Source: an uncultured Candidatus Saccharibacteria bacterium (GTDB taxonomy: Bacteria > Patescibacteriota > Minisyncoccia > Minisyncoccales > JANBVM01). From it: DNA of 64,000 nucleotides. The position numbers were made by a program, and so were the translations under genes. Below are positions 33,729-57,393 of the stretch, one piece after another; the stretch's first letter is position 1, and each line of letters starts with the position of its first letter. The stretch is taken from positions 70,595-134,594 of the forward strand of contig CAYVDD010000001.1 of assembly GCA_964450805.1 (NCBI GenBank), written 5' to 3'. A model generated the notes under the pieces. The model had not been told where the DNA came from, searched no databases, and saw nothing but the letters and a program-made list of their open reading frames with translations.

Positions 33729-33799
33729 CGCGGTGTAGAGGAGTAGTACCTCGCCAGTCCCATAAGCTGGAGGCCCTGGTGCAATTCCAGGCACCGCAA
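33729..33799 (+). tRNA. tRNA(CAU), initiator-like (C1xA72, A11:U24) but atypical
   Basis: Manual cloverleaf: CGCGGTG-TA-GAGG-AGTAGTA-CCTC-G-CCAGT-CCCATAA-GCTGG-AGGC-CCTGG-TGCAATT-CCAGG-CACCGCA-A. No CCA is encoded. Confidence 0.7.
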
Positions 33800-33815
33800 C
33801 AAGGTTTTAAACAAA

Positions 33816-33887
33816 GCCGGTGTAGCTCAACGGTAGAGCAGTAGCATCATAAGCTATGGGTCGGGGGTTCGATTCCCTTCACCGGTA
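33816..33887 (+). tRNA. tRNA(CAU): elongator Met or Ile2 (lysidine) type
   Basis: GCCGGTG-TA-GCTC-AACGGTA-GAGC-A-GTAGC-ATCATAA-GCTAT-GGGTC-GGGGG-TTCGATT-CCCTT-CACCGGT-A. Several G.U pairs are present. Confidence 0.8.
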
Positions 33888-33893
33888 CTCTCG

Positions 33894-33968
33894 GGGGACG
33901 TAGTGTAGCCTGGTTAACACGCTTCCCTGTCACGGAAGAAATCGCCGGTTCAAATCCGGTCGTCCCCG
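33894..33968 (+). tRNA. tRNA-Asp(GUC)
   Basis: GGGGACG-TA-GTGT-AGCCTGGTTA-ACAC-G-CTTCC-CTGTCAC-GGAAG-AAATC-GCCGG-TTCAAAT-CCGGT-CGTCCCC-G. Confidence 0.9.
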
Positions 33969-34010
33969 CAATTGTATAAAATTGCATATATTTTTATTTA
34001 ATTGTATAAA

Positions 34011-48465: not shown

Positions 48466-49911
48466 ATGAAGAATAATAAAAATTGGCCAATCTATTCAAA
48501 AGATAACTTGATTTTAGGTAATCCTGAAAAAGAAGTTGCTATTGTAACTTTATGGACACCAACAAAAAAAATTACTGAAAAGCTAGATAAAAACCTTTTT
48601 TCTGTAGCTGGCCAGCTCTATTCTAAAAGCGGCATTAATTACATTATCAGGAATATTTTAGCTAATCCATTGATACATTATTTGGTTGTTTGCGGTCAGG
48701 ATCTTTCAGGTTCAGGCCAAGCTCTGATTAATTTCTTTAAAGAAGGCATTGATGAGAATTATAATATTATAGGCAGTGATTTTGCTTTAATTCATAAAGA
48801 AATACCAAGTCAGGCTTTAGAGCTTGTTCGTAAAAATGTTCAAATAAAGAATTTAATAGGGGTTAGAGAAATAGAGAGAATAAATAAAGAGTTAAAAGCT
48901 TGTTCTCTAGTTGGCAAACCATTTGCTAAACCTCAGACATTTGCCAGCCATAAAGAAAAAAAATCCCTGTCTTTTCCTGCTGAACAATCTGTTTTTAAAG
49001 TAAGGGAAAAATATATTGCTCCTGCTTGGTTTAGAATTTTGAAACTGATTCTAAAATTTGGAGCAGTTAATAAAAGCTGGTATGGAAATGAAGTCAGAGA
49101 GATTTTTAATATTGCAGCTGTGGTTAGTAATGAAAATCCTCTTAAACCACGAATGTTTCCTTTTTTACAGGTTAGCAGGGAGGATATTAAAAAATATCAG
49201 TCAAACATTATGAAAGGAGATAAGGGAGATGAAATATATAGTTATGGAGAAAGGCTTTGGAATTACAGAGGGATAAATCAAGTAGAAGATGTAATAATAC
49301 CTTATTTAAAGAAATATCCTAATGACAGGGCTTCATTAGCTGTAATATTTGATATGACTCATGACCACAAGGCTTCCCGGTCTCCCTGCATGTGTCTGGT
49401 TCAGGCTACGACTTTAAATAATAAACTGAATTTAACTGCTTATTTTAGAAGTCATGCTATATTTTCAGGATGGGTTTTAAATGCATTTGGTCTTCGTCAG
49501 CTTCAGCAATATATTGCTCAGAAGCTGTCAAAAAAAACAGGCCTTTTAACAATTTTTTCTAATTGCGCTCATATTTATGACAATGAATTGCCAGCAGCTA
49601 AAAAAATCATTGAGAAATACAGTTCTGAAAAACTAGATTATTCTCCTGATCCTCGAGGTTACTTCGTTATTACTATTGAAGGAAAAGAAATAATTCTTAA
49701 ACATTATTCTCCTGAAAATCAATTTCTGCAGGAATTTCGCCAGAATGGTTTGATAGAGAAGGCTGCTATTAAAATGTATAATAAATTAATTTCAGCTGAA
49801 GCTATTTCTGAAGTTTCTCATGCTTTTGATTTGGGTGCTGAACTCCAGAAAGCTGAAATTGCTGTAAAAAATAATTTAAAATATATTCAGGACAAAGAAT
49901 TATTATTATAA
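48466..49911 (+). CDS. ThyA-family thymidylate synthase-like enzyme with ~170-aa N-terminal extra domain
   Basis: The C-terminal half has YGERLWNYRG, SPCMCLVQ (catalytic PC), YFRSHAIFSGWVLN (aligns to E. coli YQRSCDVFLGLPFN) and CAHIYDNE. Confidence 0.75.
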   Translation: MKNNKNWPIYSKDNLILGNPEKEVAIVTLWTPTKKITEKLDKNLFSVAGQLYSKSGINYIIRNILANPLIHYLVVCGQDLSGSGQALINFFKEGIDENYNIIGSDFALIHKEIPSQALELVRKNVQIKNLIGVREIERINKELKACSLVGKPFAKPQTFASHKEKKSLSFPAEQSVFKVREKYIAPAWFRILKLILKFGAVNKSWYGNEVREIFNIAAVVSNENPLKPRMFPFLQVSREDIKKYQSNIMKGDKGDEIYSYGERLWNYRGINQVEDVIIPYLKKYPNDRASLAVIFDMTHDHKASRSPCMCLVQATTLNNKLNLTAYFRSHAIFSGWVLNAFGLRQLQQYIAQKLSKKTGLLTIFSNCAHIYDNELPAAKKIIEKYSSEKLDYSPDPRGYFVITIEGKEIILKHYSPENQFLQEFRQNGLIEKAAIKMYNKLISAEAISEVSHAFDLGAELQKAEIAVKNNLKYIQDKELLL

Positions 49912-51928: not shown

Positions 51929-53395
51929 ATGGAATCCAAACTTCAAGCAGTAATAGGCCTGGAAATACATGTGGAATTAAGCACTAATTCTAAAATGTTT
52001 TGTTCATGTAAGAATGATGCTGATGAGAAACATCCGAATGTTAATATTTGTCCAACATGTACTGCCCAACCAGGGAGTCTTCCTGTAATAAATAAAGAAG
52101 CTGTCAGGTATGTTATAAAAACAGGATTAGCTTTGCATTCTGAAATTGCTGAAGTTTCAAAATTTGACAGGAAAAACTATTTTTATCCTGATCTACCTAA
52201 AGGATATCAGATTTCCCAGTATGATATGCCAATTGCTCAAAAAGGAGAGTTAAAGTTCAGAGTTAAGAGTTTGGGTCCTAAAACCGTAAGAATAACCCGT
52301 GTTCATCTTGAGGAGGATACTGGCAGTTCAGTCCATCTTAAAGAGGAAAACTACAGCTTGGTTAATTTTAACAGAGCAGGTATTCCCTTAATGGAATTAG
52401 TCACAGAGCCTGATATGAATTCAGCGTTAGAAGCAAGGAAATTCAGCCAGGAGCTTCATTTGCTTTTGCGCTATTTAAATGTTTCTGAGGCTAATATGGA
52501 AAAGGGTCAGTTAAGAATTGAAGCAAATATTTCAGTTAAGCCCAAGAATTCAAAGCAGCTGGGAACAAAAGTAGAAATTAAAAACCTTAATTCTTTCAGA
52601 GTTGTAGAAAAAGCCATTGATTATGAAATAAAAAGACAAACAAAATTATTAAAGTCAGGTAAAAAAATTGTTCAGGAAACAAGAGGCTGGGATGAAAAAA
52701 AAGGAGTGACAGTCTCTCAGCGTGAAAAAGAACAAGCTCATGATTACCGTTATTTCCCAGAGCCTGATTTACTGCCCTTAGTGTTTGATAAAGACGAGAT
52801 TAATAAAATTAGGGCTGAAATTCCTGAACTTCCTTTCAATAAAAAAGCAAGATTATCTGAAGAGTATAAAATAGATAAAGATAGTGTTGAATTCTTTGTT
52901 TATAATAAAGATTTAGGGGAATATTTTGAAAAGGTAGTTTCTGAATTTGAACCTAATCTTGCTAAAGACAAGCTTAATAGTTTGATAAATCTGGCAGTGA
53001 ATTATATTATCACTAATCTTCAAGCTTTATTAAAAGAAAAAGGTGTTGAGGGTGAGGATTTTTTAATTACTCCAGAGAATTTTGCTGAATTCATTACTTT
53101 AATTGAGAATAAAACAATACTAAGCAAGGTTGCAAAAACAGTGCTTTTGGAAATGTTTCAAACGGGCGCTGATCCTTCAAATATTATTGAAGAAAAGGGT
53201 TTAAACTTAATGAAAGATAAGGGTGAGATTACAAGTATTGTAAAAGATATAATTTCAAAAAATCAAAGAGCAGTATCAGATTTTAAAAAAGGAAAACAAA
53301 ATGCAATCCAGTTTTTAATAGGTCAGGTAATGGCAAAAACAAAAGGAAGAGTAGATCCTAAAACCGCAGAAAAAATCTTAAAAGATAACCTATAA
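51929..53395 (+). CDS. gatB: Asp/Glu-tRNA amidotransferase subunit B
   Basis: VIGLEIHVEL....MFCSC, DRKNYFYPDLPKGYQISQ and NRAGIPLMELVTEPD. Confidence 0.95.
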   Translation: MESKLQAVIGLEIHVELSTNSKMFCSCKNDADEKHPNVNICPTCTAQPGSLPVINKEAVRYVIKTGLALHSEIAEVSKFDRKNYFYPDLPKGYQISQYDMPIAQKGELKFRVKSLGPKTVRITRVHLEEDTGSSVHLKEENYSLVNFNRAGIPLMELVTEPDMNSALEARKFSQELHLLLRYLNVSEANMEKGQLRIEANISVKPKNSKQLGTKVEIKNLNSFRVVEKAIDYEIKRQTKLLKSGKKIVQETRGWDEKKGVTVSQREKEQAHDYRYFPEPDLLPLVFDKDEINKIRAEIPELPFNKKARLSEEYKIDKDSVEFFVYNKDLGEYFEKVVSEFEPNLAKDKLNSLINLAVNYIITNLQALLKEKGVEGEDFLITPENFAEFITLIENKTILSKVAKTVLLEMFQTGADPSNIIEEKGLNLMKDKGEITSIVKDIISKNQRAVSDFKKGKQNAIQFLIGQVMAKTKGRVDPKTAEKILKDNL

Positions 53396-55549
53396 GAATG
53401 CTTTTATGAGTTTTTCTGCTTGAGAATAGTTTTTAATCCAGTTAATTGTTTTGTCTTTTTTAAACCAGGTCATCTGGCGTTTAGTAAATTGTATTGTATG
53501 TTTTTTTATATCCTTTTTAATCTCTTCTTTGTTTTTATTTTCAAGCCATTCAGAATAGCCAATGGTTTGAAGCAGGGGGGAAGTTCCATATTTTTTTGTT
53601 AATTTCCTGACTTCTTTTTCAAGTCCAAGTTCAAACATCTTGTCAGTTCTTTTTGAAATTCTTTTTTCTAATTCTTTTTTCGGTAATTTTATTCCAATTT
53701 GCAGAATATCAAAAAGAGAAGCTTGTTTTTTTCTTTGAATCCAGAATGGTTTTTTTGTAATTCTACAAACCTCAATTGCCCGCACTAATCTTCTTTTATT
53801 ATTTTTGTCAATTAATTCAGCGCCTTTGGAGTCTAATTTTTTGTAAATTTTAAATAATTCTTTAGTATTTTTTTTCTCTAATTGCTTCCTTAACTTTTTA
53901 TTTGGTTTTACTTTTGGAAAATCAACATTATCAACAATTGATTTTATGTATAAACCTGTTCCTCCAACTAAAAATGGTAATTTCCCTTTTTTATAAATTT
54001 TTTCTATTGTTTTAATTGCTTTTTCTTTGTAGAGCGCCACATTAAAATCTTTATTTAGAGCAAGAAAATCAATTAAATGATGGGGAACTGCTTTCATTTC
54101 TTTTTTGGTTGGTTTAGCAGTTCCAATAGCCATTTCTTTATAAATTTGCCTTGAGTCAGCTGAAACAATTTCTCCATTAAATTTTTTCGCCAATTTAATA
54201 GCTAAATTTGTTTTGCCAGTTGCAGTGGGTCCTAAAATTACAATCAGTTTTGGTTTACTGAGAATTCCTTCAAGCCCCCAAGATAAATCTTTTGTAATTT
54301 TTACTTTTATTATTTTACCTGTTAAACTCTTATTCTCGCTCTGTATTTTTACTGTTTTATAGGTTCTGGTTTTTCCAAACAAGAACCTTTTTTCATGTTT
54401 ATTTATCAATACTTTAACTTCTTTTCCAACATATTTTTTATTGTTTTCTAAAGCAGTTTTTTCAAGAATTTTTGTTAAAACAAGCCATCTGATATGCTTT
54501 TCTTTTTTGGAAATGTTGTCTTTTAATCCTAATGCCTTTGTGTGAGGCCTGGGAGAATATTTGGCAATATATGCCATATCAAATTTCATTTCTTTGAATA
54601 ATTTAACTGTGTTCTGGAACTGGCTTTTAGTTTCAGATGGAAAACCAACAATAACATCAGTAGACAAATTAATGTCAGGGATTTTTTTTCTTATTTTTTT
54701 AACTAAATCTTTATAGTTTTTTACTGTATAACTGCGGTTCATCTCTTTTAAAATTTTATTATCTCCGGATTGAACTGGAAGATTGAGATATTCTGTTACT
54801 TTTTTAAGTTTAGCCATTGTATTAATTAATTCGTTTGAAAAATCTTTGGGATTTGGAGATGTGAATCTTATCCAGAAATCAGCATTGATATTATTAATCA
54901 TTTCTAAAAGCTTTGAAAAGGTTATTTTAGAATTGGCAGGGGATTTATAGTCATTAACATTCTGGCCTAAAAGCCAGATCTCTTTAATATTATTTTTAAC
55001 TGCTTTTTTTACTTCATTTATTATTTCTTTGTGATCTCTGCAGATTAAAGGACCGCGAGTAAAAGGAACTATACAATAAGCACAGGAGTTATTGCAACCA
55101 GATGATATTGGAATTAAAGCTGAAAAGTTACTAATTCGTTTTGGTTGTATTTTAAAATATTGGTTATCTTGTCTTAGCAAGGGTGGCCATAATTCTGATA
55201 AAAATCCAGCTTCAAAATACTTTGGCCATTGAGGTAAGCTTTTAATATTTAAGACCAAATCAAATATTTTAATAAATTTTTTATGGTCTTTTTTTGAAAT
55301 ACAGCCAGTTAAAATTGTTTTTAACTGCTTGTTTTTTTTCTTTAGTTTTTGAAGCTTTAGACTAAGTCCATGGATTCTGTTTACTGCTGATTGTCTTACT
55401 GAACACATGTTAACCACTATCAAATCAGCTTTATTCTTGTTTAAAGCTTGTTCATAGCCTTGGCTTTGTAGTAAATGAGCAATTCGTTCTGAATCAGATA
55501 TGTTTAGCTGACAGCCGTAAGTTAAGATAAAGTATTTTTTAGTAATCAT
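53390..55549 (-). CDS. fusion protein: MiaB (tRNA-i6A37 methylthiotransferase) + MiaA (tRNA dimethylallyltransferase)
   Basis: aa 1-~433: TYGCQLNISDSE, radical-SAM CNNSCAYC, and a TRAM domain. aa ~434-719: ILGPTATGKT...SADSRQIYKEMAIGTAKPT...VPHHLID...GGTGLY. One uninterrupted ORF of 719 aa. Confidence 0.88.
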   Translation of the reverse strand: MITKKYFILTYGCQLNISDSERIAHLLQSQGYEQALNKNKADLIVVNMCSVRQSAVNRIHGLSLKLQKLKKKNKQLKTILTGCISKKDHKKFIKIFDLVLNIKSLPQWPKYFEAGFLSELWPPLLRQDNQYFKIQPKRISNFSALIPISSGCNNSCAYCIVPFTRGPLICRDHKEIINEVKKAVKNNIKEIWLLGQNVNDYKSPANSKITFSKLLEMINNINADFWIRFTSPNPKDFSNELINTMAKLKKVTEYLNLPVQSGDNKILKEMNRSYTVKNYKDLVKKIRKKIPDINLSTDVIVGFPSETKSQFQNTVKLFKEMKFDMAYIAKYSPRPHTKALGLKDNISKKEKHIRWLVLTKILEKTALENNKKYVGKEVKVLINKHEKRFLFGKTRTYKTVKIQSENKSLTGKIIKVKITKDLSWGLEGILSKPKLIVILGPTATGKTNLAIKLAKKFNGEIVSADSRQIYKEMAIGTAKPTKKEMKAVPHHLIDFLALNKDFNVALYKEKAIKTIEKIYKKGKLPFLVGGTGLYIKSIVDNVDFPKVKPNKKLRKQLEKKNTKELFKIYKKLDSKGAELIDKNNKRRLVRAIEVCRITKKPFWIQRKKQASLFDILQIGIKLPKKELEKRISKRTDKMFELGLEKEVRKLTKKYGTSPLLQTIGYSEWLENKNKEEIKKDIKKHTIQFTKRQMTWFKKDKTINWIKNYSQAEKLIKAFL

Positions 55550-55605: not shown

Positions 55606-57393
55606 TTATTGATTAGCTTCTGATGATTGTAGTTTTAACTGTATCTGTTGTTGCCAGGTCGCTTTCAAATTAGTGGCGCATGCAGATACTTTTTCCCATC
55701 CTGTTGGTACATCACAGGGAGTGGGGAATTCCTTACATTCTCCTGTTCTTGGGTTTTTTGCTGGAGTGATGACCTGAATGCACACTTCAGGCTCTGCGCA
55801 TGTTGGGATTACGCATTTGTTGTTAACACATTTTGAGACTGTTCCCGGACAGCGGGATAAAGGGCAGTCAGCATCTTCAAAGCATTCATATGAGGTTCCA
55901 GGCTGTTTGCAGTAGCTGTATGATTTGCTTACTCTTACTTCTTCCAGGCCTGCACAACAGAGCTGTTCAGTTGAGCCGAGCAAGGGATTTCTGTTGACTT
56001 TTTCTCCTTCTTTAACACAAGCCAGTTCAGTTTTACATTCCCCTCTGTATGAAACCTCTATTCCTGCTTTTTTTGCCAAACAGATATTTCTGTAAGTCTT
56101 ATTATCTTTGCCACATACTGGAGAATCAGCGTTTGTGCAGATAAGCTCAGTTATCGTACTTACGGTTGACTGGAACCCGGCTCTTATTTCTATAATTCTG
56201 ATTGCATTCTGGGTAAGAGACAGAGCTGACGTTGCTTGAGCGTATGCTTTGGTATAATTCTTCTCGTCAAAATATCGTTTAGCCAAGGTCAATTGTTCTT
56301 CAGCCTGCTCTATTAACCTGAACACTTCTGGCATTTCTGTGTTTGTAGTGTCTTTTTGAATAACAAGATTTTTAGCTTTTTCCAAAGCAGCTGCTGCTTT
56401 GTCAATTTGGTCCTGAGCCTTTTGTTTTGTTATTGTATTCTCGTATCTGTTTTCTATTCTCTGGACCTGTTTCTCTCTTGCCTGTTCAACCACAGCCTGC
56501 AGTTTTTCTGAGAGCTCTGTTCCTTCAAGAGCATTTAAAATGTTTAGCTGTTTGACTTCATTGCCGCTGATTTTTTCAACATATTCCTGGAAATTTTTTT
56601 GTTTTTCTTCAGGAAGGTTCTCCAATGTTTCCCTTAAGGTATTGAGAACTGCTTCTTTTGTTTCCTCAACTTTCTGTTGTACTTCTTCAGGAAGTTTTTC
56701 TTTAAGGCTTTCAAGCAATTCAAGATTCTTGAATTCTTTGAAATCGCTTCCTTTTATTTCCTTCAAATTCTTTTCCAGCCTTTCAGTAATTTTTTCTTTG
56801 GCTTCAAGCTTCTGCATTACTTCTCCGAACTGTTCCAGGTGTTGTTCTCTTGTTTCTAGTATTTTTGCATAAACTTCTTCAGAAACCTGTTCTTCAAGTT
56901 TCTGAAGAATTGTCTGGTGAAGGACTTGATGCTGGGTATATTTGTCCAGGAACTTTCCTACTTCTTCATTTTCCTGGGCAGTGGCTCTTATTCTTTCTGC
57001 AAATGTTTTTACTGTCTTAACTTCATCTTCATAATTTTCAATAGCACTTTGTATTGCTTGGGTGCTTTTTTTTCTTTCAATCATTGCTTTCAATTCTATT
57101 AGTTTTTCATTACTGAACTTTTCTTTTAACTCTGTTTTTGCTACTGGATCAAAAGTAAAAAATGACTGAATATTTCTTCCCAGGTTTTTGAAAAAATAGA
57201 ATGGGCTGTCGGGCAAAATTGTTGGGGAGCTCACCCCTAGATCAGCTGGCTGGATGTTTTCATCTAAATCTATGTATTGCTGGGCTTCCTCAGAGATTGT
57301 GATTGATTCATCTTGAGCACTGACAAGACCAGCCGTCATTACCAAAGAAAAAATTACCAGACTAATAATTGAATATTTAGTTAATTTTAACAT
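55606..57393 (-). CDS. secreted coiled-coil protein with C-terminal Cys-rich region including a Kazal-like domain
   Basis: Signal peptide MLKLTKYSIISLVIFSLVMTAGLVSAQ, then PDSPFYFFKNLGRNIQ and a long E/K/Q helical region. aa 419-453 read CTNADSPVCGKDNKTYRNICLAKKAGIEVSYRGEC. Confidence 0.8.
   Translation of the reverse strand: MLKLTKYSIISLVIFSLVMTAGLVSAQDESITISEEAQQYIDLDENIQPADLGVSSPTILPDSPFYFFKNLGRNIQSFFTFDPVAKTELKEKFSNEKLIELKAMIERKKSTQAIQSAIENYEDEVKTVKTFAERIRATAQENEEVGKFLDKYTQHQVLHQTILQKLEEQVSEEVYAKILETREQHLEQFGEVMQKLEAKEKITERLEKNLKEIKGSDFKEFKNLELLESLKEKLPEEVQQKVEETKEAVLNTLRETLENLPEEKQKNFQEYVEKISGNEVKQLNILNALEGTELSEKLQAVVEQAREKQVQRIENRYENTITKQKAQDQIDKAAAALEKAKNLVIQKDTTNTEMPEVFRLIEQAEEQLTLAKRYFDEKNYTKAYAQATSALSLTQNAIRIIEIRAGFQSTVSTITELICTNADSPVCGKDNKTYRNICLAKKAGIEVSYRGECKTELACVKEGEKVNRNPLLGSTEQLCCAGLEEVRVSKSYSYCKQPGTSYECFEDADCPLSRCPGTVSKCVNNKCVIPTCAEPEVCIQVITPAKNPRTGECKEFPTPCDVPTGWEKVSACATNLKATWQQQIQLKLQSSEANQ

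Follow-up and report, generated by a model that had tools for sequence, protein, structure and literature searches.

The 64,000-nucleotide (nt) stretch of DNA analyzed here, hereafter called the window, covers positions 70,595 to 134,594 of contig CAYVDD010000001.1 (assembly GCA_964450805.1) from an uncultured Candidatus Saccharibacteria bacterium, and it carries a single open reading frame (ORF) of 719 amino acids (aa) in which a MiaB and a MiaA are joined end to end. Both enzymes modify adenosine 37 (A37) of tRNA. MiaA acts first and yields N6-isopentenyladenosine (i6A), which is the substrate of MiaB, the second enzyme; the final product, 2-methylthio-N6-isopentenyladenosine at position 37 (ms2i6A37), adjoins the anticodon. 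An initial annotation of the window, made from the letters and the translated ORFs, had proposed one fused gene and had given no strand. The ORF listing of the window bore out a single ORF with zero internal stops and placed it on the minus strand. All motifs named in that annotation were recovered from the translation, i.e., TYGCQLN, NMCSVR, and CNNSCAYC for MiaB as well as GPTATGKT, DSRQIYKEMAIGTAKPT, HHLID, and GGTGLY for MiaA, and the junction (..WGLEGILSKPKLIVILGPTATGKT.. at approximately nt 54250-54265) is read in one frame with neither a stop nor a frame change, as had been stated. The gene is convergent with gatB (51929-53395, plus strand), and the stop codons of the two overlap by 6 nt. 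Scanning the surroundings of the fusion gene for promoters and terminators gave a number of sites not above that in shuffled sequence. Coordinates of the features are given in Table 1.

Table 1. Features of the miaB-miaA fusion gene and the tRNA cluster of the window (positions in the window)
Feature	Position	Strand	Evidence and remarks
Whole miaB-miaA fusion ORF	53390..55549	minus	719 aa; ATG 55549-55547, TAG stop 53392-53390; same in Logan contig L084
MiaB N-terminal MTTase/UPF0004 domain, aa 5-97	55259..55537	minus	Pfam; auxiliary-cluster cysteines C13, C49, C83
Radical-SAM domain, aa 146-317	54599..55114	minus	Pfam; CxxxCxxC = C152/C156/C159; aligns with Bacteroides uniformis 7mjv
TRAM RNA-binding domain, aa 371-429	54263..54439	minus	Pfam, 29.7 bits (cut-off 21); weak score, faster-evolving
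Junction, aa 430-433 LSKP	54251..54262	minus	AlphaFold2 model, alignment A1
MiaA (tRNA dimethylallyltransferase) domain, aa 434-706	53432..54250	minus	Pfam, NCBIfam, alignments; P-loop G440-T447
MiaA insertion ("swinging") helical domain, ~aa 541-612	53714..53929	minus	Model helices 551-606
tRNA cluster: two tRNA-Met(CAU) and one tRNA-Asp(GUC)	33729-33969	plus	None a MiaA substrate

The Pfam scan suggested by the initial annotation matched all four families expected there (UPF0004, Radical_SAM, TRAM, and IPPT), and the domain content of the ORF is far above chance expectation. MiaB is a methylthiotransferase of the radical-SAM type that carries two [4Fe-4S] clusters, and the order UPF0004, radical-SAM, TRAM that characterizes its family is present in the N-terminal part of the fusion (Pfam). 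This part matched the MiaB equivalog TIGR01574 with 375.6 bits over aa 5-428 (NCBIfam, cut-off 355.3), and aa 4-428 were aligned over the full length of Bacteroides uniformis MiaB 7mjv (E-value 2e-74, 36-37% identity). The related identities MtaB (303.9 bits) and RimO (247.5 bits) were rejected, as both scored under their NCBIfam cut-off of 357. In an alignment of 39 fusions (A1), the radical-SAM cysteines C152, C156, and C159 and the auxiliary-cluster cysteines C49 and C83 were invariant, and C13 was absent only from N-truncated rows. The same three-domain layout and the same six cluster cysteines are found in stand-alone MiaB (B. uniformis 7mjv-7mjz; TIGR01574). The fusion differs from it in its TRAM domain, which is weakly conserved, is lost in several relatives, and has an entire MiaA attached to its C-terminus by a linker of about 4 residues.

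The C-terminal part is an equally complete member of its family, so that both halves hold up as entire enzymes in Pfam, NCBIfam, and alignments to solved structures, as the initial annotation had claimed. IPPT was matched at aa 468-699 (E-value 7e-72) and the MiaA equivalog TIGR00174 at aa 435-706, with 269.7 bits against a cut-off of 148.65 (NCBIfam). End-to-end alignment of aa 430-707 was obtained with the MiaA structures 3d3q (Staphylococcus epidermidis), 2qgn (Bacillus halodurans), and 2zm5 (Escherichia coli) at 31-38% identity. The P-loop of MiaA, GPTxxGK[ST], binds the pyrophosphate of dimethylallyl pyrophosphate (DMAPP), the Asp of the DS motif is the catalytic base, and the insertion domain of the E. 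coli enzyme clamps the anticodon stem-loop. In the alignment to 2zm5, residues T442, K446, D465, and R634 of the fusion correspond to E. coli T19, K23, D42, and R217, which we take to be catalytic, and G440, T442, K446, D465/S466, and R634 were invariant among the 39 fusions of alignment A1. P-loop, Asp of the DS(x)xxY motif, Arg equivalent to R217, and helical insertion domain are thus shared with stand-alone MiaA (2zm5/3foz, 3d3q, 2qgn; TIGR00174), from which the fusion differs in having no free MiaA N-terminus, as strand beta1 starts 4 residues past the TRAM domain.

An AlphaFold2 model was built on the alignment of the fusions (mean predicted local distance difference test (pLDDT) 88.7, predicted template modeling score (pTM) 0.74). 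Its MiaB part was superposed by Foldseek on solved MiaB with a TMt of 0.87-0.90 (7mjw/7mjy: TMt 0.88-0.90, root-mean-square deviation (rmsd) 2.4-2.7 Å), and its MiaA part on tRNA-bound E. coli MiaA (3foz) with a TMt of 0.85 and an rmsd of 2.6 Å, as compared to 9-10 Å for the apo structures. No solved chain covering both halves was retrieved by Foldseek with the fusion model. In the predicted secondary structure, only about 4 residues separate the last TRAM strand (aa 425-430) from strand beta1 of MiaA (aa 434-439); pLDDT at the junction is 92-93, and the length of the linker is almost invariant among homologs (alignment A1). MiaB and MiaA are thus joined directly, with no spacer, which suggests that their arrangement is fixed; the pTM of 0.74 agrees with this, given that the larger module makes up 60% of the chain.

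Other genomes were searched for the same domain order, as the initial annotation had advised, using 5.8 billion proteins (NCBI, JGI, ENA, and Logan). MiaB followed by MiaA was found in at least 120 distinct clusters at 90% identity (640-763 aa, 50-81% identical), all of which contained both halves. The names of the sources are Patescibacteria, Paceibacterota, Nealsonbacteria, and Minisyncoccales, and complete genomes of Candidatus Nealsonbacteria are among the carriers. In a profile search of 1.84 billion representatives at 50% identity, about 18 carried parts of both halves, and stand-alone MiaB followed below them; the reverse order, MiaA then MiaB, did not occur among the best 150 of these 1.84 billion representatives. 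Scanning of genome contigs yielded one true fusion (L001) among 80 listed loci, which is no measure of the fraction of species that are fused. The architecture is conserved yet phylogenetically narrow.

The exact protein was present on two contigs, i.e., the 636-kb NCBI contig and an independent Logan assembly of SRR14802572, and the Logan contig matched the window at every position over the gene and 2 kb on either side (0 mismatches in 6,160 nt). This bears on the explanation that the ORF is an assembly artefact or a pseudogene, in fact two genes with a stop or an indel missed at the junction. Separate ORFs do occur at this position in some related metagenome-assembled genomes, but the identical independent assembly, the intact orthologs known from complete genomes as well as from four independent data sources, and the reading frame kept at a ratio of nonsynonymous to synonymous substitution rates (dN/dS) of about 0.1 make this explanation extremely improbable. 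With the same sequence in an independent assembly and that many homologous clusters, the fusion is not refuted by way of an artefact.

By the method of Nei and Gojobori, with the ortholog of CP179889.1 (81% identical) as the reference, dN/dS was estimated at 0.105 in both the MiaB core and MiaA and at 0.218 in TRAM; the ratios are approximate, since dS is close to 1. The gene is under purifying selection, and neither the MiaB nor the MiaA half is decaying. We also considered that one half might be catalytically dead and serve as a tRNA-binding or chaperone module only, e.g., MiaA as an anticodon-loop clamp for MiaB. Fusions lacking the TRAM domain (described below) suggest that the MiaA part may supply RNA binding and would fit this explanation, which is nevertheless very unlikely: all expected catalytic residues are invariant (the six cysteines; P-loop T442, K446, D465, and R634), constraint on the two catalytic halves is equally strong, and MiaB needs i6A, while no other miaA lies within the 64-kb window (of the approximately 636-kb genome).

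No description of a MiaB-MiaA fusion was found in the literature searched in full text, and MiaA and MiaB are not known to associate with each other. The proposal that the architecture is undescribed accordingly stands with regard to publications; it does not stand for the databases, where fusion proteins are already abundant and are named only MiaB or only MiaA. Both enzymes and their pathway are well known, and the fusion brings neither a new chemistry nor a new pathway. Its recognition corrects annotation, as hundreds of entries named only "MiaB" or "MiaA" hold both predicted activities, and such dual annotation matters for scoring the tRNA-modification capacity of reduced genomes.

The origin of the fusion can be read from unfused gene pairs. 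In other Patescibacteria (L002-L005, L010, L012, L028), miaA comes directly after miaB in the same orientation, and each gene has an ORF of its own; the two overlap, differ in frame, or are parted by a stop or by up to about 430 nt. In two genomes of Coriobacteriia, miaB and miaA are in frame with a single TGA between them (L008, 4637-4639; L011, 7504-7506). Read-through of this TGA would yield a MiaB-MiaA fusion in these two genomes. The usual setting of a stand-alone miaA gene is mutL-miaA-hfq. In Clostridia, miaB-mutS-mutL-miaA lie on one strand (confirmed by Pfam for L054, 5968-13295), and about 15 further Clostridia loci have miaB followed by miaA with a gap of about 5 kb; this arrangement ties miaB to the classical mutL-miaA cluster. 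These Patescibacteria, Coriobacteriia, and Clostridia operons share genes, strand, and order with the fusion and differ from it in that MiaB and MiaA are kept separate, in the adjacent pairs by a stop codon or frame change. A cluster miaB-TPR/SPOR-(MFS)-miaA-hflX is conserved in Omnitrophota (L085, L087, L089). Many Omnitrophota MiaB are themselves fused to TPR/SPOR domains (P0293, P0300, P0301, and others). The fusion arose as an old miaB...miaA cluster collapsed, once the two genes were neighbours and the stop codon and spacer that parted them were lost. The initial annotation had pointed out that the second enzyme comes first in the chain; this is correct, and the ancestral gene order miaB...miaA explains it simply, the domain order being MiaB-first because the gene order is.

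Taken together, we consider the ORF to encode a bifunctional tRNA-A37 enzyme that was born from adjacent miaB and miaA genes and provides expression at 1:1 together with a hand-off by proximity (probability about 0.8). The analysis establishes the architecture, the intact catalytic residues, the recurrence, the purifying selection, and the origin from the gene order, and it predicts both enzyme activities and the kinetic benefit of the fusion. The C-terminal MiaA would dimethylallylate N6 of A37 in UNN-reading tRNAs with DMAPP as the donor, giving i6A37, and the N-terminal MiaB would then add the methylthio group at C2, giving ms2i6A37. Since both sites hold the same flipped-out A37, the tRNA must move between them; the anticodon loop would have to dissociate from MiaA and then dock anew in the site of MiaB. 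Fusion would force the two enzymes to be expressed at 1:1 and would keep the second site locally concentrated, with no tunnel involved, and we infer physical coupling of the two reactions. In a relative (L046), tRNA-Trp(CCA) and tRNA-Tyr(GUA), both with A36-A37-A38, are encoded beside miaA.

Two observations weigh against this bifunctional enzyme with a benefit from fusion. No UNN-reading tRNA is encoded within the 64-kb window (of the approximately 636-kb genome), whose only tRNA genes are the two for tRNA-Met and the one for tRNA-Asp. In addition, a crude neighbour-joining tree, which carries no support values, has fused forms scattered among separate ones, so that fusion or fission happened more than once. 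From this scatter, the fusion would come and go readily and may be of little advantage.

A comparable organization is known from MnmC of gamma-proteobacteria, in which one polypeptide likewise acts twice in succession on a single tRNA nucleotide. MnmC has the second-step methyltransferase at its N-terminus and the first-step FAD (flavin adenine dinucleotide) oxidase at its C-terminus, about 45 Å lie between its active sites, and the tRNA probably comes free after the first step (PMC3648344). Orthologs that are not fused occur in other bacteria (PMC3648344; PMC3527978). Folds, chemistry, and target (U34) are unrelated to those of the MiaB-MiaA fusion, and the likeness is one of analogous organization, with no homology.

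Several relatives lack one RNA-binding module. In six fusions without TRAM (P0038, P0116, P0132, P0138, P0145, and P0149), which were found on several independent contigs, MiaA begins 8-30 residues past the radical-SAM domain. One of them, P0038 (L082, 6001-7923), is syntenic with the window gene (dnaE-thrS-fusion-gatB-deoC). P0149 (L081, 55-2217), P0289, and P0347, all of them TRAM-less fusions, have a MiaB half nearest to Omnitrophota MiaB, and the P0149 contig has 48% GC as compared to 32% for the window; an independent fusion event with the same domain order is therefore probable for this Omnitrophota-like group, as judged from its sequences. In P0137 (660 aa, ENA), TRAM is kept and the MiaA insertion domain is missing (profile positions 541-601); this variant was seen on two contigs only. 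Among unfused pairs, a separate TRAM-less miaB is located directly upstream of miaA in four genomes (L006, L007, L009, and L013). These variants hint at RNA-binding elements that the MiaB and MiaA halves may have in common. Some Omnitrophota MiaB with miaA one or two genes downstream also have no TRAM, however, which weakens this hint as well as a link between TRAM loss and an adjacent miaA. Domain-swap work has described TRAM as perhaps a non-specific RNA clamp (PMC2952846).

The same material was weighed with regard to neutral compaction, by which a streamlined, AT-rich genome shed the stop between two genes coupled in translation and fully independent enzymes came to lie on one chain with neither kinetic nor regulatory benefit. 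The small genome with its 32% GC, the mixture of fused and unfused miaB-miaA pairs among close relatives, and the frequent overlap or spacing by a few bases in the unfused pairs all agree with such a by-product, and the MnmC structure authors likewise infer probable tRNA release between sites (PMC3648344). Compaction without benefit is less easily reconciled with the linker of about 4 residues, whose near-constant length and confident prediction make the join look rigid in the model, with the retention of the fusion across 50-81% sequence divergence, with what is probably an independent evolution of the same domain order in the Omnitrophota-like lineage, and with the loss of TRAM in several fused lineages or of the MiaA insertion domain in P0137, which hints at shared RNA binding. 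Neutral compaction is thus conceivable, though we regard it as somewhat unlikely.

A doubtful, more far-reaching reading is that of an integrated machine, in which one set of RNA-binding elements (TRAM and/or the MiaA insertion domain) would hold the tRNA body while the anticodon loop is passed on unreleased from MiaA to MiaB, in a hand-off that is possibly non-dissociative. With the same low likelihood, it would cover the fused protein and also the adjacent pairs of TRAM-less miaB and miaA. If it were true, the repeated loss of TRAM and the loss of the insertion domain in P0137 would become permissible, and the protein would be the first case of a processive, non-dissociative two-step modification of one tRNA nucleotide. 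The natural, conserved, and presumably rigid fusion offers a test system for whether sequential modifications at a single nucleotide are physically coupled, and the relatives without one RNA-binding module widen this test.

Two further genes of the window were recorded. An apparently secreted protein of 595 aa (55606-57393, minus strand) with DUF5667, a long coiled coil, and a Cys-rich C-terminus matching Kazal inhibitor domains is encoded between thrS and the fusion gene, and it is missing at this place in the syntenic locus L082. A 481-aa ORF (48466-49911, plus strand) combines MtrA-like, thymidylate-synthase-like, and PterinBD/DUF4346 domains in an unusual ThyA-type fusion; its neighbourhood is one of nucleotide salvage (NUDIX, NYN, tmk, deoC-like).

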